64,000 nt of DNA from IMG/VR virus record IMGVR_UViG_3300020215_000004; one strand, 5' to 3'. The translations under genes were made by a program, and so were the position numbers. The notes below the pieces were generated by a model that was not told where the DNA came from, ran no database searches, and saw nothing but the letters and a program-made list of their open reading frames with translations. Of this stretch, positions 8,297 through 46,517 are shown in pieces. Each line of letters begins with the position of its first letter. The first letter of the stretch is position 1. Source of the DNA: a virus.

Positions 8297-9208
8297 ATGG
8301 CTGTCGAAACTCGCAGCTCACACCCGAGCCTTCTGTGGCCCGGCGTTTATGACACTTTCGGTGAAGCCTACAAGGACAAGCCGGAATATTTCCGCCAGAT
8401 CTTCTCGGATCACAAGTCCGACAAGCATCTCGAGATCACGACCGAACACAGCTTCTATGGCCTCGCGCCGGAGAAGTCGGAAGGCTCGTCGATCCAGTAC
8501 GATGAAAGCCGCGAAGGCTTCAAATCGACGTTCCAGCACGTCACCTACGGGCTTGGCTACATCGTCACGCGCGAGGAACTGGAAGACAATCTCTATGAGA
8601 AAGTCTCCAGCGCCCGCGCTTCGGAACTCGCCCGCTCCATGCGCGCGACCAAGGAGACGGTGCACGCGAACATCCTCAACCGCGCCTTCAACTCGTCCTA
8701 TCTGGGCGGTGACGGCGTGGTGATGTGCTCGACCGCGCACCCGACCCGTTCGGGCAACCAGTCGAACCGCCTCGCGACCGACGCCGACCTCTCGGAAGCG
8801 TCGATCGAAGACGCGGTGAAGATTGCCGTCAACATGAAGAACAACCGCGGTATCCGCATTCAAGTGATGCCGCGCAAGCTGGTTGTTCCGGTAAACGAGA
8901 TGTTCAACGCCGCGCGCTACGTGAACTCCACGCTGCGCTCCGGCACTGGCAACAACGACATCAACGCCATCAACTCGCTCGATGTCCTGCCCGAAGGCAT
9001 CATGGTCTATCCGTACCTCACGGACGACGACGCCTGGTTCATCCTCACCGACCTGAAGAACGGCCTGAAGAGCTTCGACCGCCGACCGGTCGATTTCGAC
9101 AAGGACGAAGATTTCGGCACCGAGAACGCGCGCGCGAAGTCCACTATGCGCTTCAAGCCTGGCTGGGACGACTTCCGTTGCATCATCGGCACGCAGGGTG
9201 CCGGGTAA
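8297..9208 (+). CDS. major capsid protein
   Basis: 303 aa with strong SD. Position and sequence character are typical of HK97-fold coat proteins (e.g. GLGYIVTREELEDNLY, DADLSEASIEDAV, FDKDEDFGTENARAKSTMRF). Confidence 0.7.
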   Translation: MAVETRSSHPSLLWPGVYDTFGEAYKDKPEYFRQIFSDHKSDKHLEITTEHSFYGLAPEKSEGSSIQYDESREGFKSTFQHVTYGLGYIVTREELEDNLYEKVSSARASELARSMRATKETVHANILNRAFNSSYLGGDGVVMCSTAHPTRSGNQSNRLATDADLSEASIEDAVKIAVNMKNNRGIRIQVMPRKLVVPVNEMFNAARYVNSTLRSGTGNNDINAINSLDVLPEGIMVYPYLTDDDAWFILTDLKNGLKSFDRRPVDFDKDEDFGTENARAKSTMRFKPGWDDFRCIIGTQGAG

Positions 9209-19117: not shown

Positions 19118-19417
19118 TTAGGAGATGATGACCCGATCCTGAACGCGCCGCCAGTTTGCCGACCCATCCCAGAAAACCAACGTCGCTCCTCCGGTCTCGT
19201 TCGAGCAGAGCGCGATGGCTGGGCCGTCCGGGGTGATGGCGTTGAGTTCGGCAACGGTCTTGGACTTGATCGGCAGGTAATCGGCCGTCTCGCCGCCGGT
19301 ACGATCGATCAAGTCGTTGAGCCGCTCGAGCGCGTCGCGCGCCAAACTCAGCAACCTGCTGACGAATGGCTTTGACGGATCGAAATAAACAACCGCGCGC
19401 GTGGTGATGATGCTCAT
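19118..19417 (-). CDS. small tail-associated protein
   Basis: 99 aa, ATGA-coupled to the ParB-GNAT ORF, directly upstream of the fibre. N-terminus MSIITTR resembles the tailspike N-terminus MSIITRR. Confidence 0.45.
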   Translation of the reverse strand: MSIITTRAVVYFDPSKPFVSRLLSLARDALERLNDLIDRTGGETADYLPIKSKTVAELNAITPDGPAIALCSNETGGATLVFWDGSANWRRVQDRVIIS

Positions 19418-20751
19418 GCGGACATGCGCTGCGCGAGCGCCTCCCTCAGCGAGAGGGCGCCGGCAGGGAGCCCTATTGCGAGCGCCGCAAGGCCACCGCT
19501 GCCGTTAAGACCGTTGGGAGCGGGCGGATTTTTGTCGAAGTAAAGCGATGCGTCGTAGGCGTCGATGCTCTCGGCGCCGCGCGCTTGGGCGGCGGCGAGC
19601 CGGTGATGCCCATCAATGATGTCATAGCCGCCGCGCTTGTTCCGGCGCACGATGATCGGGTCGTGATCTGGGTTCGCGACATACTCGTCCACCCAGAGCT
19701 GTTCGGGCGCCGTGTGATCCGTTCGCCGGATTTGGCCGAGCGGGACTGAACGCCTCGGCATCGGTTGCGTCGCAAGGCCAGTTTCGTCGAGGCGGCTGAG
19801 ATTGACTCGCGCCCGGCGCAGGGCGCCGATGACAAGACTGGCCGGCCCGCCGCCCGGCCCAAACCCGCCCTCATCCGCCAAGTCTTGCAGGCTCGGTCCG
19901 AACTGTCCCCCGCCTCCCGCTCCTCCGTCAGGCAATGCGGGAGGGCGTGGTTCAGTGGCGACGCGGAAGCGTCCAAACGGCAACGGCTCGACAGTGTAGC
20001 CGCGCCGCTCCAGGGCCGCGTAAATGTTGCGCGCGTCCCCTGAGAGTCCCGTTCCGCTTTCCACCCAGGGCACGCCGTTCGCACGAGCGTCGGCAAGCAT
20101 TTGCTCGTAAGCGCGGATGCCCAAGCCCTTACCACGCATCTCCTCTGGCAAGTATGATCCCATGACGTGCCAGCTATTCGGGTCCACCGGCTCCGGCCCA
20201 GGCCGTCTCTGGTAAGAAAGCGGCGCTACGCCATCCACACGCGAATGAACGGTATCGCCGCGCTCGAAAAGCCCGGTCCCGAACTGTCCCCCGCCCGCAT
20301 CTCCCGCGTCGAGCCGTTCTGGACGCCCTGTGAACTGATCCAGGTCCACCGTTTCTATGTCGCGTTGTCCGCGAAGGCGCGCAGCTTCCACACGATGGCG
20401 TCCGTCCACGAGCGCGCCGGCGCGCGTAAGAACGGGCGGGATCGGCGTCTCCCGCGCGGCGAACTCAGCGGCCAGTTCAGGCTGCTCCAAAAACTGCGGA
20501 TTGCGTGAGAGGATGTCGTCGATGGCTTGGCGGCCGACTTGCACGGGGCCGTCTTCGTAACCGCGCGGACCCCAGCGGCTGAGGTCGATGCGAACAGGCT
20601 CCGGCAGTTCGTCGAACGAAACGGAGCGCGGGCCAAAATCCGGAAACTCCCCGCTGACGCGCTCCGCAAGCGCCTGGCGCAATGACGGCGCGCGCTCGGG
20701 GCCGCGCGTAGCCCCGCCCATCAGCGCTAGGAGAGCGCGCCTGAGGCTCAT
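19414..20751 (-). CDS. ParB/Srx-like - GNAT - ParB/Srx-like three-domain protein with LRxAL termini
   Basis: ALVDGRHRVEAARLRG and YDIIDGHHRLAAAQARG (ParB-type DGxHR). Central MRGKGLGIRAYEQML (GNAT motif A). Termini MSLRRALLAL / SLRQALAERV and LSLREALAQRMSA. Confidence 0.6.
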   Translation of the reverse strand: MSLRRALLALMGGATRGPERAPSLRQALAERVSGEFPDFGPRSVSFDELPEPVRIDLSRWGPRGYEDGPVQVGRQAIDDILSRNPQFLEQPELAAEFAARETPIPPVLTRAGALVDGRHRVEAARLRGQRDIETVDLDQFTGRPERLDAGDAGGGQFGTGLFERGDTVHSRVDGVAPLSYQRRPGPEPVDPNSWHVMGSYLPEEMRGKGLGIRAYEQMLADARANGVPWVESGTGLSGDARNIYAALERRGYTVEPLPFGRFRVATEPRPPALPDGGAGGGGQFGPSLQDLADEGGFGPGGGPASLVIGALRRARVNLSRLDETGLATQPMPRRSVPLGQIRRTDHTAPEQLWVDEYVANPDHDPIIVRRNKRGGYDIIDGHHRLAAAQARGAESIDAYDASLYFDKNPPAPNGLNGSGGLAALAIGLPAGALSLREALAQRMSA

Positions 20752-22178
20752 TTCACAATCTCGTTCGCCCAGACGCCTGAGAAGGCAAAGCCAACCGGAT
20801 CTGGGATGCGGATTTTCACCAGCAAACCGTCAGCGGCGTTGGCGAGGCCAAGCCGATGCACCGTTGGGCGTACATTGTAGTGGCCCGCCGCGCCCAAGCT
20901 CACTTGCCGCTCGACACCAAGCTGCACGAGACTGTCTATGGTCCCGCCATCACGGTAGAAGGTGATGTAGGCTTTCGGAGCCGATCCCGTTCCAGAGAGC
21001 GGTTGGCCGAATGTTTTGATATCCAGCGTAATGCTCGAGATGGGCATGGGCTCGGAAACGGCGATGTGCGCCATGATGATGCGCTCGATCGGCGAGCCGT
21101 CATCGGTGTATTTGTCGTTGTCCCAAGTGTAGATCGTGTCGTCGTCGCTCGCGGCAACGACGTGCCGGCCGAAGAAGCGAGCGTAGTGTGCGATGTCGAA
21201 ACGTTCTTCGCCCATGGCCGTGCGCCGATGCCAGCGGCGCGTGAGAGCGTCGAACACATAGGCTTGGCCGTCCGGCAGCCGGCACACGAAATACTGATGG
21301 CTGCCGTCTCCATAAGCGAAGCACTGCACAGCCGAACTCTCCGGCTCGCCGAACTCCTGCAACGCAGCTTCCAGGTCGCGGTTAACGACGCGCTGAGGCA
21401 CATAGCCGTTGAGTTCGTAAACCGCGCGATCATCGCCGACGAACATGGCGTAGCTGTCGAGCTTGGCCCAGGCGTCGCGGCCGACAATGCCGCGGTTGAT
21501 GATGATCGATGGCAGCGTGTCGAAAGCATCGGCGTCCGATCCGCCCACGGCGCGCCATGGCTGTGTTGAGTCCGCGCCGAAGTGAAAGATGTCGCCGCCG
21601 ATCTCGGCTTGCGCGCGAATCTCGTCCGGATAGCGGGCCGAGGCGGCAAAGCCGGTCGCCGGCCAGTTCGTTGCATCTCCCACTGCGCTCCAGTCGAACG
21701 TGTCCGATCCCTGTTCGCTGGTCAGGATGCGGTCGGCGAGCGAGGCCAGCGTGTAGGCGTCCGAAGGAAAGTCCGCATCGACGTTAGTCGTGAGCGAAGA
21801 GCCGTCCCAAACGTAAAGCGTGCCCGATGAGAGGATGACGAGATTGGCGCCCAGCCGGTCCATAAGCACGCGGCCGGTGCCGGCGATCGTCCCGCGCGAT
21901 GTTGCGGTCCAGGTTTCATTGATGGAATAGAGCGTGTTGCCGGCGACGACGAACAGAAGGCCGCTTTGCACGCCGGGACGTGAGAACACGCCTCGTATGA
22001 GGCTGCCCGCGGCCGGCGTGACGCGCGCCGTCATGCCTTGCGTCGGCACGATCACGAATGGGCTTTGCTTGCCAGCGCCTTCGGCTTGTGGCTCGAGCGT
22101 GACGTTCTTCAGCACCATGGGCACAAGGCCCTTGGCGGAGCGGTCGTCCGAGGTCATGGCCAGTGGGAAGTAGGTCAT
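20748..22178 (-). CDS. tail hub protein, P22 gp10-like (tail accessory factor)
   Basis: 476 aa, the same size class as gp10. Repeated beta-propeller-like blades. Partner of the gp4-like adaptor. Translationally coupled on both sides. Confidence 0.5.
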   Translation of the reverse strand: MTYFPLAMTSDDRSAKGLVPMVLKNVTLEPQAEGAGKQSPFVIVPTQGMTARVTPAAGSLIRGVFSRPGVQSGLLFVVAGNTLYSINETWTATSRGTIAGTGRVLMDRLGANLVILSSGTLYVWDGSSLTTNVDADFPSDAYTLASLADRILTSEQGSDTFDWSAVGDATNWPATGFAASARYPDEIRAQAEIGGDIFHFGADSTQPWRAVGGSDADAFDTLPSIIINRGIVGRDAWAKLDSYAMFVGDDRAVYELNGYVPQRVVNRDLEAALQEFGEPESSAVQCFAYGDGSHQYFVCRLPDGQAYVFDALTRRWHRRTAMGEERFDIAHYARFFGRHVVAASDDDTIYTWDNDKYTDDGSPIERIIMAHIAVSEPMPISSITLDIKTFGQPLSGTGSAPKAYITFYRDGGTIDSLVQLGVERQVSLGAAGHYNVRPTVHRLGLANAADGLLVKIRIPDPVGFAFSGVWANEIVK

Positions 22179-22747
22179 CAGGCCGCCCTCGCTCGATTTG
22201 CAAGAGCCTCGCGAAGCGTCATGCCAGCCGCGCCGCCGCCTCCAAGCATTAGAAGCAACTGCCTGATCTCGACTGGGTCGTTGATTACAAACGTGCCGTC
22301 CTTGCGCCGCATGAAGTTCTGCGGCCCCATGTCATAGAAGTAATTAGGCGAACCTGGCGGCAGAGTTTCCTTAAGGTGCTCGTCGAGACTGCGCATAGTC
22401 TCCAGCAACGGCGCGCGTTGTGGATCATCGTCAGCGAGCCCCGTTAGGAAGAACTCTCCATTTTCCCGCCCTATCCGTGCGCGTGTATCGTTCGGCTCTA
22501 ATTTGTCCGCGCTAAACCGAAGGAGCGCGCCGGCGCGCTCCATCTCGCTCGGATTTGGCAAGTGACGCGCAGCAGGCAAACCTTGCGCATGCTGCGTGCG
22601 AGCCCAGCGCAAAAATGCTTCCGTAACCGGGTTAGGCGCCATCTCCACAACCACGCGTTCGGGGTCGATGGCGTCTGCAAACACCGTCTTGGAGCGCCCG
22701 CGCCCTATCTCAATGAGCGCGCGACGAAGGGCGGCGGACGCGCTCAT
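22178..22747 (-). CDS. minimal protein-kinase-like fold protein with LRxAL termini
   Basis: IGRGRSKTVF (Gly-loop-like). YDMGPQN-x12-ND reproduces the D-x4-N-x12-D catalytic/Mg-binding spacing of kinases. Termini AALRRALIEIG and MTLREALANRARAA. Confidence 0.4.
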   Translation of the reverse strand: MSASAALRRALIEIGRGRSKTVFADAIDPERVVVEMAPNPVTEAFLRWARTQHAQGLPAARHLPNPSEMERAGALLRFSADKLEPNDTRARIGRENGEFFLTGLADDDPQRAPLLETMRSLDEHLKETLPPGSPNYFYDMGPQNFMRRKDGTFVINDPVEIRQLLLMLGGGGAAGMTLREALANRARAA

Positions 22748-23253
22748 GCGCCCATCCGTTCAGCAAGGATTTCCCTGAGCGTGATCGCGCCAACGGGCGC
22801 GGCCACACCAAGGCCAGCCAACAGATCGGCGCTCTCTAGCCGCGCCGGATCGAACGCTGCGAAGATTGAACGGATGTCGGCGGGATTTTCCACCCGCACG
22901 TCGCTGTCGCGAAAGCCTGTAGGAATGGCTTTGTCGCGCCGCACGAACACCGGAATGACGTTCGCGCCCTCAGCGCCGCGGACACCGTTCTCCATTTCGG
23001 CAATATCCGACGCCCTTCTGGCGTCCCGCGTGAGATAGACGCCTGGCCCCCAGCCGGCGTGACGCGCAGGCTCGAACGCGTCGAACTCGCTCCTTGTGCC
23101 ATGGTAGAAAACGTCGTCGGTGTCGAAACCTTGCTCGCGAGCACGGGAGAGCCGTGCGCCGTTTTCATCCAGAGCGCCAAAGAGCGAACGCGGCCAGCGG
23201 CCCGCCGTGGCCATCAGCCTTTCAGCCAAAGCTCTACGCAGGGCCGCACTCAT
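22744..23253 (-). CDS. H-Y-E type ADP-ribosyltransferase-like protein with LRxAL termini
   Basis: FYHGT ... GVYLTRD ... VRVENP fits the H / Y / E triad context of PARP and polyvalent-protein ARTs. Termini AALRRALAERLMA and ITLREILAERMGA. Confidence 0.4.
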   Translation of the reverse strand: MSAALRRALAERLMATAGRWPRSLFGALDENGARLSRAREQGFDTDDVFYHGTRSEFDAFEPARHAGWGPGVYLTRDARRASDIAEMENGVRGAEGANVIPVFVRRDKAIPTGFRDSDVRVENPADIRSIFAAFDPARLESADLLAGLGVAAPVGAITLREILAERMGA

Positions 23254-23453
23254 GCCATCTGCTCAGCGAGCGGAGGCTTGCCGGCTCGCAGCAAACCGCC
23301 CGACGCCGGCGCCGCACGGCCCAGCATCCGCGCCAATGCTTCGATCACGGCCGCTCGCGACATGCAGAAAAGTATAAGCGTCAGTGACTTGCTGGCGGGC
23401 TTGCGCTGCCGCCCAACCCCGCCGCTCGCTCCGGATCGCGATAATCGCGGACC

Positions 23454-26015
23454 ATGAGCATCATCACTCGCCGCGGCATCTTGCAGGACGGCATCGGCAG
23501 AGAGTACGTCCGCTCCAGCTACGGCGGTCGGCGCAAAATTCTCTCGGACTGGATTGGCGATCTCGCCGACAGCACGACGCAGACCGTCGCCACCAAGGCG
23601 GCGCTCAAAGCGCTCGACACGAGCCTTGGCTATGCTTCCGTATTTGTTCAGGGCCGCACGTCAGCCGGTGACGGCGGCGGCGGTCTCTTCCGCTGGTCTT
23701 CCTCAAACAACAGCGCCAATGTAACGGCCGACACGCTCGAAGGCATCTACATTGCCCCAGATAGCGACACGGATGGGTCATCCGGCGCGTGGGTTCGCGC
23801 GGATGTGAACTTCATCCTGCCAGAATGGTTCGGCGGAAAGGCCGATAACTCGACTGACAACGCGACGGTCTTCACAGCGACCGAGACGATGGCGGATCGG
23901 CTGGACAAACGGCTTGTCTGGTGGCTGGGCGAGAACTATCGCTTCAACTCAACAGTCACAGCCACGAAAGACAGTATTCATCACGAGGGCGCTGGCGCGC
24001 GCCAGACCGCTTGGACGTTCAACCATACGAACGACGGGGTGCAGATCGGAACCAGCGCGCTTCACGTGCGCGACAATCGCTTTGACGGCATCCGCTATCT
24101 GCAAGCTAGCGGCTCCGGCTATGCGTTCAACTACTACAATGGCCGCAATCTTCAGATCATCGATGCGGCGGGCTCCTCCGTTCGCAACTGGATGAAGGTC
24201 GGTAGTCAGTTTATCGCAGTTTCTGGGGCGGTGAACAATGGCTCAGGGCTCATCCGCCTCACGCTTGCAAGCGATGCATTTGCCACGGGTGACATCGTTT
24301 ATGTGAACGCGGTTGGTGGCGTTAGCGCGGCTACTGGACAATGGACGCTGACCCGCATCTCTTCTGGTGTTTACGATCTACAGGGCTCGACCTTTGCTGG
24401 TGCATATACTTCAGGCGGGCGCGTCGCGCCACACGTGACGCAGCTCACGCATGAATGGGATGGCAATAGCATCACGACGAACGCCACCTATGCGTTTGAC
24501 ATCTACAGCATCAGCGGCACGGTGCGCTTTGGGGGTAAGCCTCTCTGGGAAAACGGCAACACATCGAGCGCCATCCCAGTTGACGGCACCATCTGGATGA
24601 ACATTCGCCGCGCCACGACCGTCTATGATCGGCTAGACTGGATCGAGGGCGCGACTGGAGGCCGACTTTACGACATATCTATCAAGATTGACAACACGCG
24701 AGTCGTTGCGATCGAAATCACGCGCGGTCATTTTGATGGACCGAAGACAGCTTTTCTGCACGTTGATCTTTCGAACGCGGATGCCACGGGCGGCGGCTTT
24801 GGCGATTGGCGCTTCCCTGGATATACACGTGTTGGTGCGGATGGCACGCACTGCAAGCAACTTGTGAAAATAACAATGGGCGCCGGAACAGGCGATCTCC
24901 TGTTCTTTGATAGATTGAACGCCAGCGGCGTTTTCCCATCTGATGCTGGGTCGAACACTCCTGCGATCGACATTGATGGCGGCTCCGGCGGCATTAAGCG
25001 CGTGAGCTTTCATGGCCTTTGCTGCAATTTGCGGCCATCTGCCGGCACGCACGATATTGGACGCATCAAGGGCAAGGTAAACATCATCGTCGATGATACG
25101 CAGGCGCTGAAGCAGGATGGTGCTGGCGCGGCGCGTGACGTTTGGCGGCTGGACAGCGATTATGTCGGGTCAGCCGTTATTAATTCAGTGCAATCGGACG
25201 GTCTCTCGGGTCACTGCCTCACTGCCGTAACTGGCATCACTGCGTCGACCGCAAGGATCATCGGCCGTGACCTGCAAAATCTCACGACCGAAGCAAACCG
25301 GGTCAGCGACGCCGATGGAATTGTTCTGGTTGACGTGGCGCCATCGCTTGGCGGCGTGAAAGCTGCAGACCTTGCATCAGTGGCGGGCACGACAGATCTT
25401 TCGGCCGTGCGCGGGGATTTTGTCGATATCACCGGCACGAATGGGATTACGGGGCTTGGCACAGAACGCAAAGGCCGCCGCGTCTGCTGCCGGTTCACCG
25501 GCGCTCTCACAATGACACACAACGCCACGTCGCTCATTCTGCCGGGCGGTGTAAATCGCACGACTACAGCAGGCACGATTGCCGAGTTTTTGTCGCTCGG
25601 TTCTGGGAACTGGGTCTGCACCTCGTGGATGAACGGTGATGATGCGCTTCTAGCGGGTGGCGAAGGCGCATCGGGTCATCGGGCGGCGCTCATTCGCGGC
25701 ATCCGACCTGTCTTGTCGATGACGGACGACAGCGCCATTTCGAGCGACGCTATTGCGTCGGGCACGTCGGGCCTGCTGATCCTAACATTGACGAGTGGCG
25801 AATATCTGCTTGCGCAGTTCGAAACGTCCGGCACCGCAACGCTGACATCGATCTCCGCTCACGCCAATATCAACGTCACGACGGGCGCGCTTACGGGTAC
25901 GACAGGCACTGACGCCAAGTTCAATGTGGCTATCCACACTGATCGCAAGATATATTTCGAAAACCGGCTTGGCGCCACCACGGTGCTGACAGCGTTTCTC
26001 ATGTCATCTCTCTAA
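23454..26015 (+). CDS. tailspike / depolymerase with right-handed beta-helix
   Basis: 853 aa. TSAGDGGGGLFRWSSSN ... PEWFGGKADNSTDN (pectate-lyase-3-type N-terminal signature). Long repetitive beta-rich body. Confidence 0.65.
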   Translation: MSIITRRGILQDGIGREYVRSSYGGRRKILSDWIGDLADSTTQTVATKAALKALDTSLGYASVFVQGRTSAGDGGGGLFRWSSSNNSANVTADTLEGIYIAPDSDTDGSSGAWVRADVNFILPEWFGGKADNSTDNATVFTATETMADRLDKRLVWWLGENYRFNSTVTATKDSIHHEGAGARQTAWTFNHTNDGVQIGTSALHVRDNRFDGIRYLQASGSGYAFNYYNGRNLQIIDAAGSSVRNWMKVGSQFIAVSGAVNNGSGLIRLTLASDAFATGDIVYVNAVGGVSAATGQWTLTRISSGVYDLQGSTFAGAYTSGGRVAPHVTQLTHEWDGNSITTNATYAFDIYSISGTVRFGGKPLWENGNTSSAIPVDGTIWMNIRRATTVYDRLDWIEGATGGRLYDISIKIDNTRVVAIEITRGHFDGPKTAFLHVDLSNADATGGGFGDWRFPGYTRVGADGTHCKQLVKITMGAGTGDLLFFDRLNASGVFPSDAGSNTPAIDIDGGSGGIKRVSFHGLCCNLRPSAGTHDIGRIKGKVNIIVDDTQALKQDGAGAARDVWRLDSDYVGSAVINSVQSDGLSGHCLTAVTGITASTARIIGRDLQNLTTEANRVSDADGIVLVDVAPSLGGVKAADLASVAGTTDLSAVRGDFVDITGTNGITGLGTERKGRRVCCRFTGALTMTHNATSLILPGGVNRTTTAGTIAEFLSLGSGNWVCTSWMNGDDALLAGGEGASGHRAALIRGIRPVLSMTDDSAISSDAIASGTSGLLILTLTSGEYLLAQFETSGTATLTSISAHANINVTTGALTGTTGTDAKFNVAIHTDRKIYFENRLGATTVLTAFLMSSL

Positions 26016-27958
26016 CGAGCAGCTGAGACCAAACGATCCGCTAAACCGAGATTGCCAGCGACAACTGCGGCGCCATCGTAGGAAAGATGGGCTGCATCCC
26101 GAAATAGCAGCGTATTGCCGCGTCTCGTGACGCATACGGCCTCAGCGCACATTGCCGTTGTCGGCCAAACTACTGGGATGGCCGCCTCTGCAGCAGCGCG
26201 ATCTAGGTATGCGAGCACGTGGCGCCGCCTGCGACGCCACTCGGTCTCTGGAAAGCGGCAATCGGCTTCCTCATCTGACACGAGGCCGCGAATGAGGCGC
26301 TCTTGGCACTGGGCGTAGTCGTCTCCAGTGAACGGAATAGGCCCCAGCATGACTACACGTTTGCCCGCCGCGCGAAGTTCTCGCGCTAAGACAACGTAAG
26401 ATGCTTGGAGCTGCGCAGGTTGCGCATAAGAAGAACTGAGCACCACTATCTCTATCGAGGGCGTGCGCTCAACGTACGCCAACACATCTGCATTGAATGC
26501 GCGGCACAATTCCAGAGATCGGGCGCGCGCCGCATCGGCGTGCGGATTGACAAACTCGCCGTACATCGGAGCACAACTTGGTCGCGTTGCCTGAAGCATT
26601 CCGCGCGGACCAAGCTGTCGCCCAAGCGCCTCGCCCCACATCATGGCGTTGGAGTCGCCCCAGAGGATTACGCGCGGTCGCGCAGTCGTTCGGCAAAGCT
26701 CTACAATGTCGGCGAACGTGACGGGGCCGTTGGCGCTGCACTGTTCGCCGAGTCCGTAATTCGGGCGGAAGATGTGCCGGAAATCAGCATCGGCGAGCGG
26801 ATCGCCAGTGGACGGCGTGAATGTCGAGGCGAAAGCGCTCAAGCCATTGCTTGGTGCGGTGACATAGAGGCTTCCTGCTACGAGCACGGCCGCCGCCGTG
26901 GCAAGGCCAGAGGTTAGACTTATGCGCGCTTTCGTGAAGCTGCGCCGGAACGGCTCTTCGATCCAGGTGTAGAGCGCAAGGCTTAAAGCAATAGACGCCG
27001 CAAGAGCCGCTAACGTCCCCCACTCCGGAAGATCTGGCCAGCGAGCTCGCATCAGCACGAGCACCGGCCAATGCACGAGGTAGAGAGAGTAGGAGAAATT
27101 TCCCACCCACGCGACGGCGCGGACGGGAGGGCTCCGTTCCGCTTCTCCGCCCGTTGCGCCGAGAATGAGGACCAGGGTTGCAAGGCATACAATCGCGGAG
27201 TCCACGCCGGGGTGCGGCCCTCCGATTGGAAACGCCGGGGTTGCCAGCAAGACGATCAGTGCGGGAACGCGGAGCCAGGAAAGCAAGGGCGCGCCCATGA
27301 ACCGCGAGGCGACAAGCGCGGCAAAAGACCCGAGCGCCAACTGCCAAGCACGCGATGGGAGAAGATAGAACGCCGCGGAAGGATCGATCGTCAACAGGTA
27401 GACAGTCAGCGCCGCGCTTCCTGCGAGGATCACAGCAATGATCGCCAGCCATGCTTTGCGCGGCGCGAACGCCAGCAGCGCGGGCATCACCAGATAATAC
27501 TGCTCCTCCAGCGAAAGCGACCAAAAATGTAGGAGCGGTTTCGTCGCGGCCTCGCTGTCGAAATATCCAGCCTGCTGCCAGAAAATGAAGTTGGATGAAA
27601 ACGTGATGGCGCCGATGGCTTGGCCCCTCAGCTCATCCAGCGCCGAGTCCGACACACAGAAAGGTGCCGCAATCAGCGTCAAGCCGAGAACAAGGAAAGC
27701 CGCCGGCAAGAGCCGTTTAGCGCGGCGATAGTAGAACGATGCGAATGAGAACGAGTGCGCGTCGATGCTCTTCGCGATTAGCCCCGTAATCAGAAAACCA
27801 GAGATGACAAAGAAAACATCGACGCCAAGATACCCAGCCGGAAGTGGCAGTCCTGCGTGATATAGCACGACTGCCAGCACGGCGAAGCCGCGTAACGCCT
27901 GAATGTCCGTCCGCAGCTCGTTCTTTGGCGCGCCAGCCGGAGCGACATATGGGGTCAT
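26012..27958 (-). CDS. acyltransferase family 3 (OafA/YrhL-like) with C-terminal SGNH domain; O-antigen modification moron
   Basis: ALRGFAVLAVVLYHAG...GVDVFFVISGFLIT, about 10 TM segments, C-terminal VILWGDSNAMMWGEAL (SGNH block I). Confidence 0.8.
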   Translation of the reverse strand: MTPYVAPAGAPKNELRTDIQALRGFAVLAVVLYHAGLPLPAGYLGVDVFFVISGFLITGLIAKSIDAHSFSFASFYYRRAKRLLPAAFLVLGLTLIAAPFCVSDSALDELRGQAIGAITFSSNFIFWQQAGYFDSEAATKPLLHFWSLSLEEQYYLVMPALLAFAPRKAWLAIIAVILAGSAALTVYLLTIDPSAAFYLLPSRAWQLALGSFAALVASRFMGAPLLSWLRVPALIVLLATPAFPIGGPHPGVDSAIVCLATLVLILGATGGEAERSPPVRAVAWVGNFSYSLYLVHWPVLVLMRARWPDLPEWGTLAALAASIALSLALYTWIEEPFRRSFTKARISLTSGLATAAAVLVAGSLYVTAPSNGLSAFASTFTPSTGDPLADADFRHIFRPNYGLGEQCSANGPVTFADIVELCRTTARPRVILWGDSNAMMWGEALGRQLGPRGMLQATRPSCAPMYGEFVNPHADAARARSLELCRAFNADVLAYVERTPSIEIVVLSSSYAQPAQLQASYVVLARELRAAGKRVVMLGPIPFTGDDYAQCQERLIRGLVSDEEADCRFPETEWRRRRRHVLAYLDRAAAEAAIPVVWPTTAMCAEAVCVTRRGNTLLFRDAAHLSYDGAAVVAGNLGLADRLVSAAR

Positions 27959-30088: not shown

Positions 30089-30412
30089 ATGTCCGAGAAA
30101 ATCATTCCTCTGCGTTCGTTGACTTCGTGGAAGGAAGCTGAAGGCGGCTTGGCCGAACGCCTCCGGATCGAGCTCGGCTCGCTCGCCAACGTCTACGCCA
30201 GCGATCTCGCCGGCTACGTGGTGGTTTGCGTGAATGGCCTCGGCGAATGGTCTCTGTCGTGGAAGGTGGACGAGGACTCTCCCATTGGCCGGACCATGCT
30301 GGCGGGCCTAGCTCTGGCAGCCGTGCAGCACGATATGATCGCGGACAGCGCGGCGATGGAAGCGATCGTCCGCAATGGGCTTCGGGAGCAACCACCGGAG
30401 TCGGAAAGCTGA
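30089..30412 (+). CDS. hypothetical protein
   Basis: 107-aa ORF with normal composition. No motif recognised. Confidence 0.4.
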   Translation: MSEKIIPLRSLTSWKEAEGGLAERLRIELGSLANVYASDLAGYVVVCVNGLGEWSLSWKVDEDSPIGRTMLAGLALAAVQHDMIADSAAMEAIVRNGLREQPPESES

Positions 30413-30436
30413 GGCCCGCGCGGTCACGCGTCGAAG

Positions 30437-30763
30437 CTAGGCGGCTGCGGAGGCGGCTTTCACCCACTTGGAGAGCGAGGACGCTGAAACGTTCATTTCG
30501 CGCGCGATCTCAGCGTAGCTTCGTTTTGGGTTTTCCAGCTTCATCTTGATCGCGTCGGACTTGCGCTGTTTGCGCGTCATGCGATCCTGGAAGCGCTGCG
30601 TCGCAGCGGCGTGCCGTGCGGCCTGTTCTGGCGTTGGCAGCGTCACGCGCGCTGTGCGCTCACTCAGGCGCACTTCTAGAACCGATCCATCGTCCAAGGT
30701 GGAGACGGTCACGCTTTCGGATCGTTGCGCAATCGGGACAGGCGGAATATCGGCGGGGCTCAT
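30437..30763 (-). CDS. small DNA-binding protein, C-terminal HTH
   Basis: ATGA coupling to the upstream gene. C-terminus RSYAEIAREMNVSASSLSKWVK is HTH-like. Confidence 0.5.
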   Translation of the reverse strand: MSPADIPPVPIAQRSESVTVSTLDDGSVLEVRLSERTARVTLPTPEQAARHAAATQRFQDRMTRKQRKSDAIKMKLENPKRSYAEIAREMNVSASSLSKWVKAASAAA

Positions 30764-31554
30764 GCAGCGTCGCGCGCCCAACGCTTCAACGTCGATAGCG
30801 GAACGCCCGTGAGCCGGTGGACTTGGGCCGGTCCTTGGCCCTGACGCAACATGAGCCGGGCCGTGGCCCGGTTCGGATCATCCAGATTGCGAACCTGAGC
30901 CCGGCTCATTTTCTGGCTCATGGGCTTTGGCTCACGGCTCGGCTCAGTCGGAAATGAGCCGGGCTCGTGAGCCTGTGAGCCTGGGGCCATCGCAAGGGCC
31001 ACTGAGCCAGCGAGCCCGCCGGAAATGGCCCGCAAGTGAGCCCGTGAGCCTTTCGGCTTGGGGGTGTGAGCCTCGTCCTGTGAGCCTTGGTCCGGCTGCT
31101 TTATTTCGGGTGCGAGTTCGGTTTCTTCGACAGCCCACATGAGCCAAGGATCGATCCACGCCGAGCCTAAGAAGAAGATCAGCAGGAAGGCAGACTGAGC
31201 CCACTCCACGCTTAGGACGGATTCGATCTGGACCGGCCCGCCTTGGGTCATCTCGAACGCGTGGTGAGCCGAGTAGCCCGACCATGAGCCGAATAGGCCA
31301 AGGGCCATGAGCCATACCAGTGTGGCCCTGTGAGCTTTCTTAGACCCGGCTCGGCGCATCTGGACCGATGCGTTCAAAAGCATGACGCAGGCGATGAGCG
31401 AAACAGCGGCCGAAATGAACCCTTCGCCGGTGTAGCCGTTCTGCGCAATCCAACCCCAAGCGCCGAACCCGCCCATAAACAAAGCCCAGCCGATCACGAC
31501 AGGGCGAACCCAATCGTTCGGCGGCGGCGGCTCGTAGGCTTCCACGGCGGACAT
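30760..31554 (-). CDS. membrane protein (4 TM) with C-terminal HTH; contains the TGAGCC array
   Basis: N-terminal TM segments, low-complexity linker, C-terminus QVHRLTGVPLSTLKRWARD (HTH-like). Confidence 0.5.
   Translation of the reverse strand: MSAVEAYEPPPPNDWVRPVVIGWALFMGGFGAWGWIAQNGYTGEGFISAAVSLIACVMLLNASVQMRRAGSKKAHRATLVWLMALGLFGSWSGYSAHHAFEMTQGGPVQIESVLSVEWAQSAFLLIFFLGSAWIDPWLMWAVEETELAPEIKQPDQGSQDEAHTPKPKGSRAHLRAISGGLAGSVALAMAPGSQAHEPGSFPTEPSREPKPMSQKMSRAQVRNLDDPNRATARLMLRQGQGPAQVHRLTGVPLSTLKRWARDAA
30810..31313 (+). repeat. array of 16 co-oriented TGAGCC hexamers plus 4 inverted copies (GGCTCA at 30903-30946)
   Basis: Direct copies start at 30810, 30852, 30896, 30955, 30968, 30976, 31003, 31037, 31045, 31067, 31081, 31140, 31196, 31265, 31285 and 31308. 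They occupy all three codon phases of the host ORF (6/4/6). Confidence 0.9.
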
Positions 31555-31580
31555 TCCGCCTCAGATTTGCGCGCCGCCTC

Positions 31581-31799
31581 TTAAGAGGTCCTTAAGCTTG
31601 ATCGCGCTTTCCTGAGTCTTCCCCCGTCGATCGACTGCGGGGAGCATGGGCGCTTAACGGCAGGCGGACGGTCTCGATAGGGGCCGTCCGTTCGCGCGAC
31701 CCGTGCGGCTGGCGCGTTCTCCCGCTTCTCCCTAGCGAACTTGTCGAACTCGTAAGCTACGATCTCAGGAGGCGTTTTGCCTTCCCACTCGGGTTTCAT
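31581..31799 (-). CDS. hypothetical protein (doubtful)
   Basis: First half is protein-like (MKPEWEGKTPPEIVAYEFDKFAREKRE). Second half is Arg/Pro-rich. Confidence 0.25.
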   Translation of the reverse strand: MKPEWEGKTPPEIVAYEFDKFAREKRENAPAARVARTDGPYRDRPPAVKRPCSPQSIDGGRLRKARSSLRTS

Positions 31800-31800
31800 T

Positions 31801-31844
31801 TCTAAGTCTCCAGTCTAGAGACCCCATGCGGGGAGGGATGTAGG
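31801..31844 (+). repeat. direct repeat copy A (44 bp) with internal stem-loop
   Basis: TCTAAGTCTCCAGTCTAGAGACCCCATGCGGGGAGGGATGTAGG. 42/44 identical to 32602-32645. ATCAAATCAG follows both copies. Confidence 0.9.
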
Positions 31845-31874
31845 CGCGCGAATCAAATCAGGGTAGGGTGCGGT

Positions 31875-32366
31875 ATGAGTGAGACTCTGCTCCACCGGAT
31901 AATTCGGATGAAAGAGGGCGACAAGATCGGCGATTACACGGTGATGCTGGTGGGGCGAGAGACCGTAAAGGGATTGTTCGGGAAGAAGCCATCGCAGGAG
32001 AGCCACGGCGTGCGTGAAGAAGACATCCCAGACGGCGCCGAGTTAGTCATTCAACCATGCGGCGTCGATATGAAGATCGGCGACGATCTTATTCCGGCGG
32101 GGCAGGGAGGCATCTGCGACCGCATCGGCGGGCGCTGGGTGCTCCGCAAGCCAGTAGTATCCGACGATGGCGAGCACAGTCTCCCTCGCATGCTCGCTAC
32201 CGCCTTCGTGGAGGCGCTGCGCAAGCAACCGGAGGAGCCATACCTCGACAAGCTCAACGACCTGAACTGCTTCGTGATCGATGGGAGATGCGATCTCATC
32301 CGCGCGTTCGAGGATGTCTTGGATGCAGCGGCCGATGCGGGCTATGTGCTCGTCCGCGACGAGTAG
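31875..32366 (+). CDS. hypothetical protein
   Basis: 163-aa ORF between the two direct repeats. Acidic, ordinary composition. Confidence 0.5.
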   Translation: MSETLLHRIIRMKEGDKIGDYTVMLVGRETVKGLFGKKPSQESHGVREEDIPDGAELVIQPCGVDMKIGDDLIPAGQGGICDRIGGRWVLRKPVVSDDGEHSLPRMLATAFVEALRKQPEEPYLDKLNDLNCFVIDGRCDLIRAFEDVLDAAADAGYVLVRDE

Positions 32367-32369
32367 AGG

Positions 32370-32408
32370 AATGGGCCAACAAAGGGCCAAAGGAGCCATC
32401 ATGAGCCG
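32370..32408. repeat. inverted repeat, left arm (39 bp)
   Basis: AATGGGCCAACAAAGGGCCAAAGGAGCCATCATGAGCCG. 37/39 complementary to 32562-32600. Confidence 0.9.
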
Positions 32409-32571
32409 CTGGAATCCGAAGCCGGAAGAATACAAACCAGCGCCGCCGCCTTGGTGCCAGTACTGTGGCGCTAAGTTTGCGCAAGGCGCCGCCGTCAAAT
32501 GGGTAGGCGGCTTTAGCTACCATCCAGACTGCGCCGACGAGGACCAGGAACGGCTCACCATCGGCTCATGA
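32401..32571 (+). CDS. 56-aa CxxC...HxxC zinc-binding-like protein
   Basis: Start and stop codons lie in the two arms of the 39-bp inverted repeat. Sequence MSRWNPKPEEYKPAPPPWCQYCGAKF...YHPDCADED. Confidence 0.4.
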   Translation: MSRWNPKPEEYKPAPPPWCQYCGAKFAQGAAVKWVGGFSYHPDCADEDQERLTIGS

Positions 32572-32600
32572 TGGCCCCTTTGGCGCTTTGTTGGCCCATT
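32562..32600. repeat. inverted repeat, right arm (39 bp)
   Basis: CGGCTCATGATGGCCCCTTTGGCGCTTTGTTGGCCCATT. Abuts direct repeat copy B. Confidence 0.9.
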
Positions 32601-32601
32601 T

Positions 32602-32645
32602 TCTAAGTCTCCATTCTGGAGACCCCATGCGGGGAGGGATGTAGG
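32602..32645 (+). repeat. direct repeat copy B (44 bp)
   Basis: TCTAAGTCTCCATTCTGGAGACCCCATGCGGGGAGGGATGTAGG. Its stem GTCTCCA/TGGAGAC is perfect. Confidence 0.9.
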
Positions 32646-32752: not shown

Positions 32753-32829
32753 TGGGGCGTAGCTCAATCTGGAAGAGCGACGGCTTTGGGTGCCGTTGGT
32801 TGCGAGTTCAAATCCCGCCGCCCCAACCA
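32753..32829 (+). tRNA. tRNA-Pro (anticodon TGG), CCA encoded
   Basis: Hand-folded cloverleaf. Acceptor TGGGGCG/CGCCCCA, D arm GCTC..GAGC, anticodon arm ACGGC-TTTGGGT-GCCGT, T arm GCGAG-TTCAAAT-CCCGC (one A.C mismatch). Confidence 0.75.
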
Positions 32830-32833
32830 CTTC

Positions 32834-32907
32834 TCCGGCTTAGCTCAATGGTAGAGCGGCGGGTTGTGTCCCCGAGGACGGCGGTTCGATTCCGCCAGCC
32901 GGTACCA
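32834..32907 (+). tRNA. tRNA-His-like (anticodon GTG), CCA encoded, atypical
   Basis: T arm GGCGG-TTCGATT-CCGCC is good. Anticodon loop TTGTGTC. Deviations are a U1.U72 mismatch, a G27.A43 mismatch and U37. Carries A73 and U72. Confidence 0.55.
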
Positions 32908-32928
32908 TTCCTTTTTGGTGCTGCGGTC

Positions 32929-33348
32929 ATGTCTAAACACAAACAGAGGCGCAGCCTTCGCAAGAAGGCCCGCTTGAAACGTGCGGCGGTCATCGCGCTC
33001 TACGGGCGCCGATGCTTCTATTGTTCGGTGGAATTGGTCGAAGGCGAGCCCAACGGTTCGCCTGTGCAGTTCACGCTCGATCACGTTCGCGCGCTCTCGC
33101 GTGGCGGCACGAATGACATTGAGAACCTGCGTCCCGCTTGTCCCGGCTGCAATCAGGCGCGCGGCAACGGCGATCCTTTGCCGGGTCCAGTGAAGATCAA
33201 AGCGCCAAATCCGCCGCGACCACCGAGCGCGTTTGATCTATCGTACGGATGCGAAGATGAGCAGGGCAGGCGAGAGCTTCGCCTTGCTCGCGCAGCGCGT
33301 CTTGGCGTGACGGATGCGCGCTTTTTGCCAAACAGCAAATCATGTTAG
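32929..33348 (+). CDS. HNH endonuclease
   Basis: CFYCSV...LDHVRALSRGGTNDIENLRPACPGCNQARG. True start is ATG 32929; the longer track ORF runs through the tRNAs. Confidence 0.75.
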   Translation: MSKHKQRRSLRKKARLKRAAVIALYGRRCFYCSVELVEGEPNGSPVQFTLDHVRALSRGGTNDIENLRPACPGCNQARGNGDPLPGPVKIKAPNPPRPPSAFDLSYGCEDEQGRRELRLARAARLGVTDARFLPNSKSC

Positions 33349-36574: not shown

Positions 36575-37663
36575 CTAGCCATGTTCGCCCCTGATCGCCG
36601 CCACCTCGGCAGGGGAGGCGAGTTCTTTGGCAAGGGCCACTTCCTCGTCCGTCAGGAAGTCGAGGTAGCCTTCGGTGGTTTTCACCGACGTATGGCCGAG
36701 CAGGCTTTGCAGGCGATAGATCGAGCCGCCCGCCTTCAGGAAGCGGATCGCGTACTCATGGCGCAGATCGTGAAGGCGGAAGCTCTTGAACGTCCAGCCC
36801 TCGCGCTCGGCGCGGCGTAGCGCCTTGGCGCGCACATCCTCAAACGCGCGCGAGAGATTGGTGAGCTTGTCGCCGTTCGGCTTGGCGAACACGTAAGGGC
36901 TTCCCATGACGGCCGGCGCCGAGCGCAGATGGCGCATCGCTTCTTCCGTGAGCTGGCGCGTGCGGATGCGTCCGCCCTTCGTGCGGAACGTCACGATGCC
37001 CGTTGTCCAGTTGACTTGCGCGCGCTGAAGCGAGGCCGCGTCAACGTTCAAACGGAAGCCTGACGCCAACAGGAATTGCAGCAGCGCCGCCCACATCGGC
37101 GAGGCTTCCTTCACGCACGCATCAAAGCTCTTCATGCACGGCCGCTGAATGGGCTCGCGCGTGTCGCGGATAGTTGAGCGATCCCATTCTCGAGCTGGGT
37201 TGTCGTCTCGATAACCATGCGCGACGCAATGCGAGAGGAGGCGTGAGAGCGCGGTGATGTCGCGCTTGATCGTGGCGTTGGACACCTTGTCTTCGGTGCG
37301 CCGCTTCAACACGTACTCGCCGATCTTGCGGCGCGTGATCTCGTGCTGCTTGAGCGAGCCGAAGGTGTCCTTAAGCTTAAGGATGGAAACGCCGTACCGA
37401 TCGCGCGTCGATTGGCTGCGCACGCCCATTCCCGCTTCGGTCCATTCCAGCGCCGCGCGGTTGAACGTAACGTCGGACACATCGCCCGCTCGCTCTTTCT
37501 CAGCGAGCGCCTGCATCTCCTTTACCTTGCGACGCGCCTCGACCGGATCGCTTGTATTAAGGCTTCTTCTTCGGTCTTCGCCGTTGACTTGAATGCGGAC
37601 ATAGGCGCGGCCGTTGCGCCAGAGGATGTTCTTGTCCGGCGAGGAGCGGGCTCTTTTCGACAT
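36575..37663 (-). CDS. int: tyrosine integrase
   Basis: C-terminal HDLRHEYAIRFL ... LLGHTSVKTTEGYLDF (R..HxxR..Y catalytic signature). N-terminal arm-binding-like WRNGRAYVRIQVNG. Confidence 0.85.
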   Translation of the reverse strand: MSKRARSSPDKNILWRNGRAYVRIQVNGEDRRRSLNTSDPVEARRKVKEMQALAEKERAGDVSDVTFNRAALEWTEAGMGVRSQSTRDRYGVSILKLKDTFGSLKQHEITRRKIGEYVLKRRTEDKVSNATIKRDITALSRLLSHCVAHGYRDDNPAREWDRSTIRDTREPIQRPCMKSFDACVKEASPMWAALLQFLLASGFRLNVDAASLQRAQVNWTTGIVTFRTKGGRIRTRQLTEEAMRHLRSAPAVMGSPYVFAKPNGDKLTNLSRAFEDVRAKALRRAEREGWTFKSFRLHDLRHEYAIRFLKAGGSIYRLQSLLGHTSVKTTEGYLDFLTDEEVALAKELASPAEVAAIRGEHG

Positions 37664-37851
37664 GCCTTCTCGTAGCGTTGTCGTTTCCATTTCGCCAAGC
37701 CCTCCAAGTCGAAAGTCCAGATCCGGCCCACCTGGTCTGCGTAAGGGTGAAGATCGCCGCGCTTTGCCATCGCCTGCACCTCGCGCACCGACACGCCCAG
37801 GATCGCGGCTGCGTCCTTGGCTCTGCCTGGAGGGGAGGGGTGCGCGGACAT
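37522..37851 (-). CDS. xis: excisionase-type HTH protein
   Basis: AAILGVSVREVQAMAKRGDL...WTFDLEGLAKW (HTH_17/MerR-like excisionase pattern). 3' part overlaps the int start in another frame. Confidence 0.5.
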   Translation of the reverse strand: MSAHPSPPGRAKDAAAILGVSVREVQAMAKRGDLHPYADQVGRIWTFDLEGLAKWKRQRYEKACRKEPAPRRTRTSSGATAAPMSAFKSTAKTEEEALIQAIRSRRVAR

Positions 37852-46044: not shown

Positions 46045-46517
46045 GTCCGCTCCGTAGAATTACCGCGCGCAGCGGAGGCCCCGTTAGCCCCCGACGACTC
46101 CGCTGCGCGCTCCCCTCCCGGCGAGGAGGAGTCTATTGGTTGGTCTGTGAAGGTGACGCCGTTCTGGACGCCCCATGTCTCGATGAGCTGGAGAAGGTCG
46201 CCCATTTCCTCTGGCGACATCTCAGATGTGCGCGCGCCGAACGCGACGAAGCCTGTGCCGTCTAGGTTCGGCGTAATTTCTTGGCCGCGCAGCGAGGCGG
46301 TAAAGAGCGCCTTCCAATCTTCGCTGGAGCGCTTCTTGCCGTGCCATTCCTTCTGCTCGGCGATGTCATCAAGGAACGCCCACATGCGCGCGTTCTGAGG
46401 ATTGGAACGGGTAGGGGGCTTGAACAGCAGCGTGTAGCCGAGCGGGCACTTGTCGAGCCACTTGGCCGCTTGCGCTCTGTCGCGCCCGCTGTGGAGGGTG
46501 ATCTTCGCGGGCTTCAC
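46041..46517 (-). CDS. ninB: NinB/Orf-family recombination mediator
   Basis: PTRSNPQNARMWAFLDDIAEQKEWHGKK...WKALF matches the lambda Orf/NinB signature. Adjacent to the annealing protein. Confidence 0.65.
   Translation of the reverse strand: MKPAKITLHSGRDRAQAAKWLDKCPLGYTLLFKPPTRSNPQNARMWAFLDDIAEQKEWHGKKRSSEDWKALFTASLRGQEITPNLDGTGFVAFGARTSEMSPEEMGDLLQLIETWGVQNGVTFTDQPIDSSSPGGERAAESSGANGASAARGNSTERT

Follow-up and report, generated by a model that had tools for sequence, protein, structure and literature searches.

Codon choice in a phage membrane protein gene carries an array of hexamers that may be read by the protein's own helix-turn-helix domain

The 64,000-nucleotide (nt) window analysed here, IMG/VR virus record IMGVR_UViG_3300020215_000004, covers 64 kb of the ~67-kb genome of what its sequence indicates to be an uncultured temperate podovirus-like phage. 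A minus-strand gene at 30760–31554 encodes a 264-amino-acid (aa) protein that is predicted to consist of four transmembrane (TM) helices, a disordered linker and a C-terminal helix-turn-helix (HTH) domain; the same protein occurs on contigs of 66,877 and 67,260 bp. The gene encloses a dense array of the hexamer TGAGCC and its variants. This array is a DNA-level signal imposed on codon choice, and its sequence covaries with the type of HTH encoded by the gene. We favour, with moderate confidence, the reading that the array provides about 30 iterated sites for the gene's own HTH, which would form a sequence-specific tether between the DNA and the membrane.

All positions refer to the whole window, and to the plus strand unless stated otherwise. 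The 20 hexamer positions listed in the original prediction were all correct on recount: TGAGCC starts 16 times (at 30810, 30852, 30896, 30955, 30968, 30976, 31003, 31037, 31045, 31067, 31081, 31140, 31196, 31265, 31285 and 31308) and GGCTCA four times (at 30903, 30915, 30929 and 30941), all within 504 bp. The distribution of the hexamers over codon phases 0, 1 and 2 of the minus-strand open reading frame (ORF) was reproduced as 6/4/6, and the near-copies that had been described were located at 31011 and 31162 (CGAGCC) and at 31331 (TGAGCT). An extra GGCTCA at 30757 spans the stop/start overlap of the array gene and the downstream gene. The observed count is far beyond chance. Both strands of the window together hold 67 hexamers, compared to 44.7 ± 7.0 in dinucleotide shuffles of the whole window, and this surplus comes wholly from the cluster. 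An equal density of the hexamer elsewhere in the phage, which had been named as the finding that would speak against a special array, was not observed: the ~63 kb outside the cluster contain 24 hexamers on the plus and 22–23 on the minus strand, which is chance level without strand skew.

Pooling of nine homologous genes and comparison with their own flanks demonstrated that the true motif is broader than the hexamer and had been overlooked in this form. TGAGCC was 22-fold enriched (109 copies vs 5.0 expected), each of the TGGNCC variants 7–10-fold and CGAGCC 6-fold, while TGCxCC and TGTxCC words were largely missing. The TGGNCC count also exceeded synonymous expectation. We therefore define the motif as a core TGAGCC plus TGGNCC. 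No consensus extends into the flanking bases, where T is weakly avoided at position -1, and of the purine said to precede the core only a weak tendency remained (A 35%, G 35%, C 21% and T 9% among the 109 pooled copies). Defined in this way, the array comprises 32 instances at 30757–31366 (605 bp), 21 of them TGAGCC/GGCTCA and 11 TGGNCC/GGNCCA, irregularly spaced and in mixed orientations. No instance occurs in the flanking 350–530 bp (30400–30756 and 31367–31900). An 8-bp unit, GTGAGCCT, is present in two tandem copies. The motif exhibited neither a 3-nt nor a helical 10–11-nt periodicity; weak signals appeared at 7 and 9 nt in loci that are not independent of each other.

The pressure on codon choice was quantified by counting permissive sites, defined as places where some synonymous codon choice could create the word. 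Two null models were used, in which codons were either resampled from phage usage or shuffled among the gene's own synonymous codons (5000 replicates each). On the sense strand, 16 of 20 permissive sites for GGCTCA are realised, where phage codon usage predicts 1.8 (maximum 8 in 5000), and TGAGCC is realised at four of seven (1.35 expected, maximum 6 in 5000). Shuffling of the gene's own synonymous codons yielded 4.2 GGCTCA (maximum 10 in 5000), again vs the 16 observed. Synonymous recoding could eliminate 16 of the 20 realised TGAGCC/GGCTCA. As the realised sites far exceed both synonymous nulls, resampling proves that the word array is a DNA-level signal imposed on codon choice. The original view of a DNA-level signal rather than a peptide repeat, based on the use of three codon phases, is thus upheld. 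The selection extends to the choice of linker residues, in which GS occurs eight and AH five times.

We collected 36 homologues of the protein, all of them metagenomic, and compared the DNA for most of the divergence range. Eleven homologous genes hold 25–42 copies of TGAGCC plus TGGNCC each (L001 31, L004 36, L139 25, L140 39, L142 36, L143 33, L013 32, L006 31, L007 31, L005 36 and L147 42), compared to about 8 expected. These eleven array lineages include three membrane-domain types, with identities down to 39–45%. Many motif positions are lineage-specific, indicating turnover, and the forward:reverse (F:R) orientation varies among the homologues (16:4, 12:6, 9:8, 5:7 and 7:8; pooled 70:39). 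At amino acid-identical codons that are 4-fold or more degenerate, codon identity was 67% where the third base falls within a motif and 45% otherwise. In most loci the array halts at the stop codon, with flanks near zero. It continues for 140 nt past the stop into the convergent gene in L141/L142, and motifs lie 170–360 nt past the stop in L139. Since the array here runs into non-homologous DNA, it is not tied to the reading frame and is no coding artefact. The L139 gene (2288–2950, protein P0016) lacks about 45 linker residues, and still holds 25 motif instances in addition to the six past its stop; recombination between copies of the hexamer may account for the missing residues.

Taken together, these data leave hardly any room for a reading without function, in which the array arises as a side effect of peptide repeats, of unusual codon usage or of recent microsatellite-like duplication. 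The peptides GSRAH, GSQAH and MSQKMSR do recur and are conserved in the linker, and the tandem 8-bp unit would be compatible with duplication. However, a by-product accounts neither for the three codon phases and the 16 copies where own-codon shuffles reach 10 at most, nor for positions that turn over while the copy number is kept across 11 lineages, nor for the higher conservation of synonymous sites inside motifs. An IMG/VR scan for three clustered TGAGCC returned at least 120 stretches, and nearly all of the matches listed reflect peptides repeated in frame, spaced by multiples of 3 or 9. Only one array among the listed matches is of mixed orientation, an unrelated 10-bp iteron set in element L069 (IMGVR_UViG_2648501113_000001, 8640–8930). 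About 11 copies of TGTGAGCCTT / AAGGCTCACA occupy the 3'-terminal 300 nt of a 976-aa primase-helicase gene and the stretch directly behind it, and the tail of this gene encodes CEP and GSQ repeats. L069 has the TGAGCC core in common with the array, but no homologue of the array gene's HTH. Scans of viral contigs with the distant family members P0041 and P0045 gave no match.

The structure of the encoded protein was modelled with AlphaFold2 on a 22-sequence alignment. The model, together with a sub-threshold match to Pfam HTH_23, agrees with the initial description of the ORF as a protein with four TM helices and a C-terminal HTH. Residues 16–147 (31114–31509, minus strand) are predicted to form the four-helix membrane domain, with a predicted local distance difference test score (pLDDT) of ~75–92; the corresponding DNA holds nine motif instances vs 4.2 expected. 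The linker (residues 152–213; 30916–31101, minus strand; pLDDT <50) appears disordered and is encoded by the densest part of the array, with the peptides GSRAH, GSQAH and MSQKMSRAQ. The C-terminal domain (residues 218–263; 30766–30903, minus strand; pLDDT ~90) is modelled as a homeodomain-like HTH with the putative recognition helix PLSTLKRWARDA. HTH_23 scored 16.4 bits against this protein (E=0.008), which is below the gathering score (cut-off 24.6), and was found at E≤1e-3 in 15 of 50 family members (best 5.5e-8). The closest PDB sequence to the domain is a psq-type HTH, as a weak match (E=0.09). By model and sequence, the domain thus appears to resemble the HTH_23, CENP-B_N and psq homeodomain-like HTHs.

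An exhaustive profile search yielded 176 representative clusters (50% identity), mostly of 230–330 aa and of the same plan, and the HTH_23-type domain is the only Pfam signal in the 50 representatives scanned. The membrane domain gave no match to Pfam, PHROGs, NCBIfam or PADLOC, and Foldseek of the full model against the PDB returned nothing below E=0.8. Domain library searches revealed no Rep/O/DnaA-like, ATPase or translocase domain in the protein. The family is uncharacterised. The architecture of a small HTH, a disordered linker and a four-TM bundle fits the proposed array tether.

The main argument for the gene's own HTH as the reader comes from homologues in which this domain differs. 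Two of them, L137 and L149, are of type HTH-B, with the recognition helix TGLTRYKVGQIA in place of TGVPLSTLKRWA. L137, whose membrane domain is of the same type as that of the window gene, has four type-A motifs (TGAGCC/TGGNCC), 12 copies of CGGCCA/TGGCCG (2.9 expected, maximum 7 in 1000) and seven of TCAGCC/GGCTGA. L149, which has another membrane-domain type, was fetched as a test after the type-B motif had been defined in L137; it contains no type-A motif, 15 CGGCCA/TGGCCG (4.2 expected, maximum 10 in 1000) and seven TCAGCC/GGCTGA. The pattern recurred when only the TM-coding DNA, outside the swapped C-terminal module, was compared. Genes combining membrane-domain type TM1 with HTH-A hold 9–16 type-A (3–4 expected) and 0–2 type-B motifs there, and TM1 with HTH-B (L137) holds three of each; TM4 with HTH-A (L138) holds five type-A and no type-B motifs, TM4 with HTH-B (L149) no type-A and six type-B motifs. 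In L150, a member of only 17% identity with the A-like helix TGLPNSTCKRY, an unbiased scan returned GGCTCA as the top enriched hexamer (6 vs 0.7). In every HTH-A locus, including those with weak arrays, the densest motif window of the locus is the array gene. Thus, the site sequence covaries with the DNA-binding domain, HTH-A with TGAGCC/TGGNCC and HTH-B with CGGCCA/TCAGCC, which argues that the sites of the array are cognate to the HTH of the same gene. Small homeodomain-like HTHs of the HTH_23/psq/CENP-B_N kind read about 6 bp as monomers, which fits a bare degenerate hexamer without fixed spacing or orientation.

The array had also been proposed as a platform for either of two adjacent HTH proteins. 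Of these, the gene's own HTH is the likely reader, while the other candidate, a 108-aa soluble protein (HTH_Tnp_1/CENP-B_N-like; 30437–30763, minus strand, its start overlapping the stop of the array gene), fares worse. Its gene is present only in the closest relatives and is not conserved with the array; it is missing beside the equally dense, full arrays of L005 and L013 and from the weaker-array loci L009 and L011. Because of its absence from these four loci, the sequence comparison identifies the 108-aa protein as not being the required reader. More generally, we consider it unlikely that the array is a platform for another protein, be it this or another phage protein or a conserved host factor (as decoy, silencer or nucleoid protein). 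In favour of such a reader, the adjacent gene carries an HTH of similar class, weak arrays next to an intact HTH-A indicate that the protein can exist without a dense array, and phages with only 17–45% identity in the array gene retain one and the same hexamer, which a conserved host factor could account for as well. However, CGGCCA/TCAGCC replaces the motif in precisely those genes whose own HTH is of the other type, TM-coding DNA included. No phage or binding motif of the sequence TGAGCC or GGCTCA turned up in a literature search, which also revealed no known alphaproteobacterial factor with this site, and a host factor is the less parsimonious explanation. A decoy for a host factor, as originally suggested, is possible in itself but leaves the covariation of motif and HTH unexplained.

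For the tether formed by the gene's own HTH, we infer three steps, namely binding of the motif by the HTH, a cytoplasmic location of this domain and, as a consequence, tethering. The C-terminal HTH would bind the ~30 low-complexity sites, with TGAGCC as core and TGGNCC as tolerated variants, while hanging from the four-helix membrane anchor via the flexible linker of about 60 residues. Many membrane-bound monomers would each grip one 6-bp site at any spacing and in either orientation. Affinity and specificity would arise from avidity, which is needed for specificity because the degenerate 6-mer (TGAGCC/TGGNCC) occurs at ~2.6 per kb elsewhere in the genome. As a result, a stretch of phage DNA would be tethered to the inner membrane in a sequence-specific manner. 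With the sites placed in its own gene through the choice of codons and linker residues, protein and cis-site would travel as one mosaic cassette. The protein's first target is probably the DNA molecule from which it is expressed, i.e. it would act in cis, since the HTH is the last part to be made, beside its own gene. As for its purpose, the tether might anchor prophage DNA or DNA under replication, act as a roadblock or topological barrier, or keep out incoming DNA of related phages. The location of the array within the accessory region is compatible with replication anchoring, with a barrier between convergent operons and with the capture of incoming related DNA; a barrier would be placed where the accessory operon meets the convergent lysis/tail operon.

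Several observations weigh against this tether. The array and the HTH-coding DNA are physically linked, and part of their covariation could be co-inheritance; the comparison of TM-coding parts addresses this point, but with small numbers. HTH-B is represented by two loci only, and their C-terminal halves are homologous. Arrays are weak despite the same HTH-A helix in L008, L011, L144/145 and L138 (9–10 copies) and in L009 (15), and the homologue L015, with a divergent HTH and 71–73% GC, is devoid of any array. With background sites at the density given above, discrimination must rest on avidity alone. Finally, the linker contains a moderately hydrophobic Ala/Gly-rich segment behind basic residues that is conserved family-wide. 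If this segment spans the membrane, the HTH is periplasmic and the DNA out of reach, and the model is refuted. By hand calculation, the Kyte-Doolittle mean of the segment is only ~1.1 over 19 residues, and AlphaFold2 shows no helix.

The same segment was noticed in its own right. Around residues 170–195 (30970–31045), and in the homologues P0041–P0096, a basic patch is followed by 15–20 residues rich in Ala, Gly and Leu that look signal peptide-like, and P0042 carries a lipobox-like LAGC in the linker segment. This part could be a membrane-associated or fifth TM segment.

The signal might alternatively act at the RNA level. GGCUCA and UGAGCC would then be selected for in the mRNA as partners of one another, of a small RNA or of an RNA-binding protein, and would control how stable the mRNA of a possibly toxic membrane protein is or how well it is translated. 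The array does not extend beyond the ORF in most loci, the mRNA folds better than its shuffles (z = -4.15; 20 shuffles), and the inverted copies give perfect hairpins, e.g. at 30896–30908 and 30897–30911/30952–30966. However, both orientations are similarly saturated (9/12 and 8/9 in L007, 16/20 and 4/7 in L001) although they are different words in RNA, and stoichiometric pairing is not conserved, as F:R ratios range from 4:1 to about 1:1. Rfam gave no match, and an RNA ligand leaves the covariation with the protein's HTH unexplained. We therefore regard this explanation as improbable.

The original prediction had further considered a Chi-like, orientation-dependent array and a packaging signal. 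We find it very improbable that the array is polar, guiding AddAB/RecBCD or an FtsK-type translocase, or that it is a pac site or a replication origin. The 16 co-oriented copies in this phage would suit such a role, intragenic arrays are known from P1 pac (hexamers) and ori-lambda (iterons), and the L069 iterons TGTGAGCCTT lie at the 3' end of a primase-helicase gene. However, the other 63 kb of the window are without enrichment or skew of the hexamer, and orientation is not conserved among homologues (9F/8R, 5F/7R, 7F/8R). Pooled, F:R is 70:39 and thereby near the 3:2 permitted by the coding phases, as a sense-strand TGAGCC in phase 0 would read as a TGA stop codon. The motif is a degenerate one that differs between HTH types, helical phasing is lacking, and neither an ATPase or translocase nor a Rep domain is present in the array protein. 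With the terminase module placed ~30 kb away, packaging is an unlikely role. The origin itself plausibly lies elsewhere, at 54.7 kb, as had been suggested. The replication genes occupy 52.6–57.1 kb, with an O-like initiator (54287–55297) and a primase-helicase (55521–57134). Within the O-like gene, CCGTAAC(A/C/G) occurs five times in 160 bp on both strands (54706–54866), and by its sequence this cluster is probably an iteron set of the ori-lambda type; the array protein has no Rep/O/DnaA-like domain.

A partition centromere of the parS/parC type was also tried and rejected, since no NTPase (ParA/ParM/TubZ) occurs in the conserved neighbourhood of any locus. The only ParB_N-like domain of the window is part of the structural module (19414–20751). 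In L001, a gene for an ART-PolyVal domain protein adjoins that of this ParB_N-like protein (window 19414–20751 and the 22747–23454 region; L001 18302–18811).

Sites within the gene of their own binding protein have precedents. The ori-lambda iterons lie in gene O and SPP1 oriL lies in gene 38; these comprise four to five sites of ~18 bp next to an AT-rich region where the DNA unwinds, and are bound by soluble initiators that belong to the replication module. As in these systems, the array places cognate repeats in a coding sequence, largely where it encodes a linker, so that protein and site are co-inherited. It differs in comprising ~30 hexamers in a gene for a membrane protein that has no replication partner and lies in the accessory region between lysis/tail genes and integrase. 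P1 pac, with seven TGATCA/G hexamers inside pacA that are regulated by Dam methylation, is likewise an irregular cluster of a bare hexamer in a coding gene that is read at the DNA level. In contrast, the P1 site is in a terminase gene, whereas the array, at a large distance from the packaging module, is degenerate and much richer in copies. The C-terminal domain of phi29 p16.7 is homeodomain-like, and this phage membrane protein with its DNA-binding part is similar to the array protein as a putative membrane organiser of viral DNA. It differs by a single N-terminal TM segment, by non-specific binding of ssDNA and dsDNA and binding of terminal protein, and by having no cis-site array; no homology of the array protein to p16.7 was detected.

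By analogy, the system appears to most resemble TraB/clt and SpdB2 (PMC4447253) and phi29 p16.7, an integral membrane protein proposed to recruit viral DNA to the membrane and to organise its replication (PMC4974454). In Streptomyces conjugative plasmids, the C-terminal domain of membrane-associated TraB reads clt, a set of short (8-bp) direct repeats, and the spread protein SpdB2 is a 4-TM, DNA-binding protein (PMC4447253). The array protein would likewise be membrane-associated and read short DNA repeats via its C-terminal domain. TraB, however, has an FtsK-like ATPase motor of which none was detected here, and the array sites, unlike clt, are degenerate 6-bp words that occur in either orientation and make use of synonymous positions along most of the gene. 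SpdB2 binds DNA non-specifically whereas sequence-specific binding is proposed here, and the likeness is by description only. Proteins of the ToxR/CadC type combine a membrane anchor and a sequence-specific DNA-binding domain in one polypeptide, with an N-terminal winged HTH, a single TM segment and a periplasmic sensor, and act at one or two promoter sites (PMC5430869). Compared to these, the array protein would have the reversed order, four TM helices, no periplasmic domain and ~30 intragenic sites. From TraB/clt, SpdB2, p16.7 and the initiator iterons, the system would be set apart by the lack of a motor, by its proposed sequence specificity, by its ~30 degenerate hexamers embedded in coding sequence and by a different, uncharacterised family.

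The array gene occupies an accessory slot between the late genes (lysis/tail) and the integrase gene (36575–37690). Its usual place in relatives is at the end of a gene unit, opposite the late operon, which is transcribed towards it. Upstream lies a co-oriented 72-aa ORF (31581–31799, minus strand), probably the first gene of the operon, with zero motif instances, and a putative lysis cassette at ~28.7–29.9 kb (plus strand) is assigned by reading of ORF translations, without a family match. Other landmarks of the genome are the portal (55–2337), a head-closure protein (20748–22178), an O-antigen acetylase (26012–27958), RecT (46514–47611), an MT-A70 methylase (58031–58708) and an HNH endonuclease (63279–63815). 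As portal and HNH endonuclease border the ~3 kb of genome outside the window, the terminase module is ~30 kb from the array; a 470-aa ORF at 61619–63031 was not supported as large terminase. The head-closure protein has GenBank phage relatives only at 25–27% identity, and megablast of 28–36 kb and tblastn of the array protein against 50,697 GenBank phages gave no match. Host hints are at the level of metagenome-assembled genomes (MAGs) only, one of Alphaproteobacteria and one of Pirellulaceae. PADLOC returned zero matches for the array gene and eight of nine neighbours, and one marginal match for the 108-aa HTH protein (mad1, E=0.0047, 15.2 bits). Rfam detected two tRNAs and nothing else in 29.5–34 kb, and no sigma-70-like promoter was found in 30–33 kb. 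A 'terminator' inside the array turned out to be a palindromic hexamer pair. A role of the hexamers as attP arm sites was rejected, with the integrase gene 5 kb off and nine genes intervening.

Several repeats are located upstream of the array gene. The sole other motif cluster in the window, a satellite of 10 instances in 250 bp (32370–32600), resides in the arms of an inverted repeat around a small Zn-ribbon ORF (32371/32401–32571); the next best stretch holds four. The hexamers reported at the inner ends of this repeat (32402, 32552 and 32563) are present, but its arms measure 43 nt (32370–32412 and 32558–32600; 93% complementary) rather than 39. The right arm is an inverted copy of the first 14 codons of the Zn-ribbon ORF, behind a second leader cassette. 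A minus-strand transcript of 32370–32600 would form a long hairpin (z = -6.9) antisense to the ORF, and the inverted repeat could be an antisense or invertible switch. A 46-nt direct repeat (31799–31844 and 32600–32645, 96% identical) with two small hairpins, GTCTCCAGTCTAGAGAC and CCCCATGCGGGG, is present in this phage alone among the related loci. As its minus strand terminates in GGAGACTTAGAAA-ATG, it looks like a duplicated leader/promoter cassette in front of the 72-aa ORF and a 14-codon truncated ORF. Genes for tRNA-Pro(TGG) and tRNA-His(GTG) (32753–32907) are directly followed by an HNH endonuclease ORF (32753–33348 in all).

Further observations concern the related loci. Four independent assemblies (L004, L005, L011 and L015) end 0.5–1.9 kb upstream of the array gene, which may reflect hypervariable accessory content or short repeats breaking k=31 assemblies, or a physical genome end. 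IS1595-family DDE transposase genes lie beside the array gene in L013 (6884–7915) and ~2.4 kb upstream of it in L009 (6833–7630), here just before the integrase gene. The relatives L004 and L005 encode a ~3,240-aa protein with LPD22/LPD23 polyvalent domains that this phage is without.

Sites of a DNA-binding protein inside its own gene are already known (ori-lambda, TraB/clt). New are the scale, with ~30 degenerate hexamers resting on codon choice over two thirds of a gene, the membrane anchor and the accessory-region location in temperate phages. The approach of comparing realised with permissive sites under synonymous resampling, combined with motif-domain covariation, is a reusable computational test. 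Tentatively, and judged from sequence comparisons, we may be dealing with an unrecognised class of phage cassette, a membrane tether that carries its 'centromere' in the synonymous positions of its own gene, with at least two specificity types, HTH-A and HTH-B, that would be akin to compatibility groups. Such a cassette could hold one particular site of the phage or prophage genome at the inner membrane, and might serve in organising replication, in insulating convergent late and accessory transcription as a topological barrier, or in kin-specific superinfection exclusion by capturing incoming phage DNA of the same type. If the proposed binding is true, it would define a function for an uncharacterised family of ~176 representative clusters at 50% identity and provide a natural, compact and orthogonal pair of DNA-to-membrane tethering modules. 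It would also show clearly how a protein code and a DNA code overlap and are selected for at the same time, and offer a tractable system to address why phages attach their DNA to the membrane.

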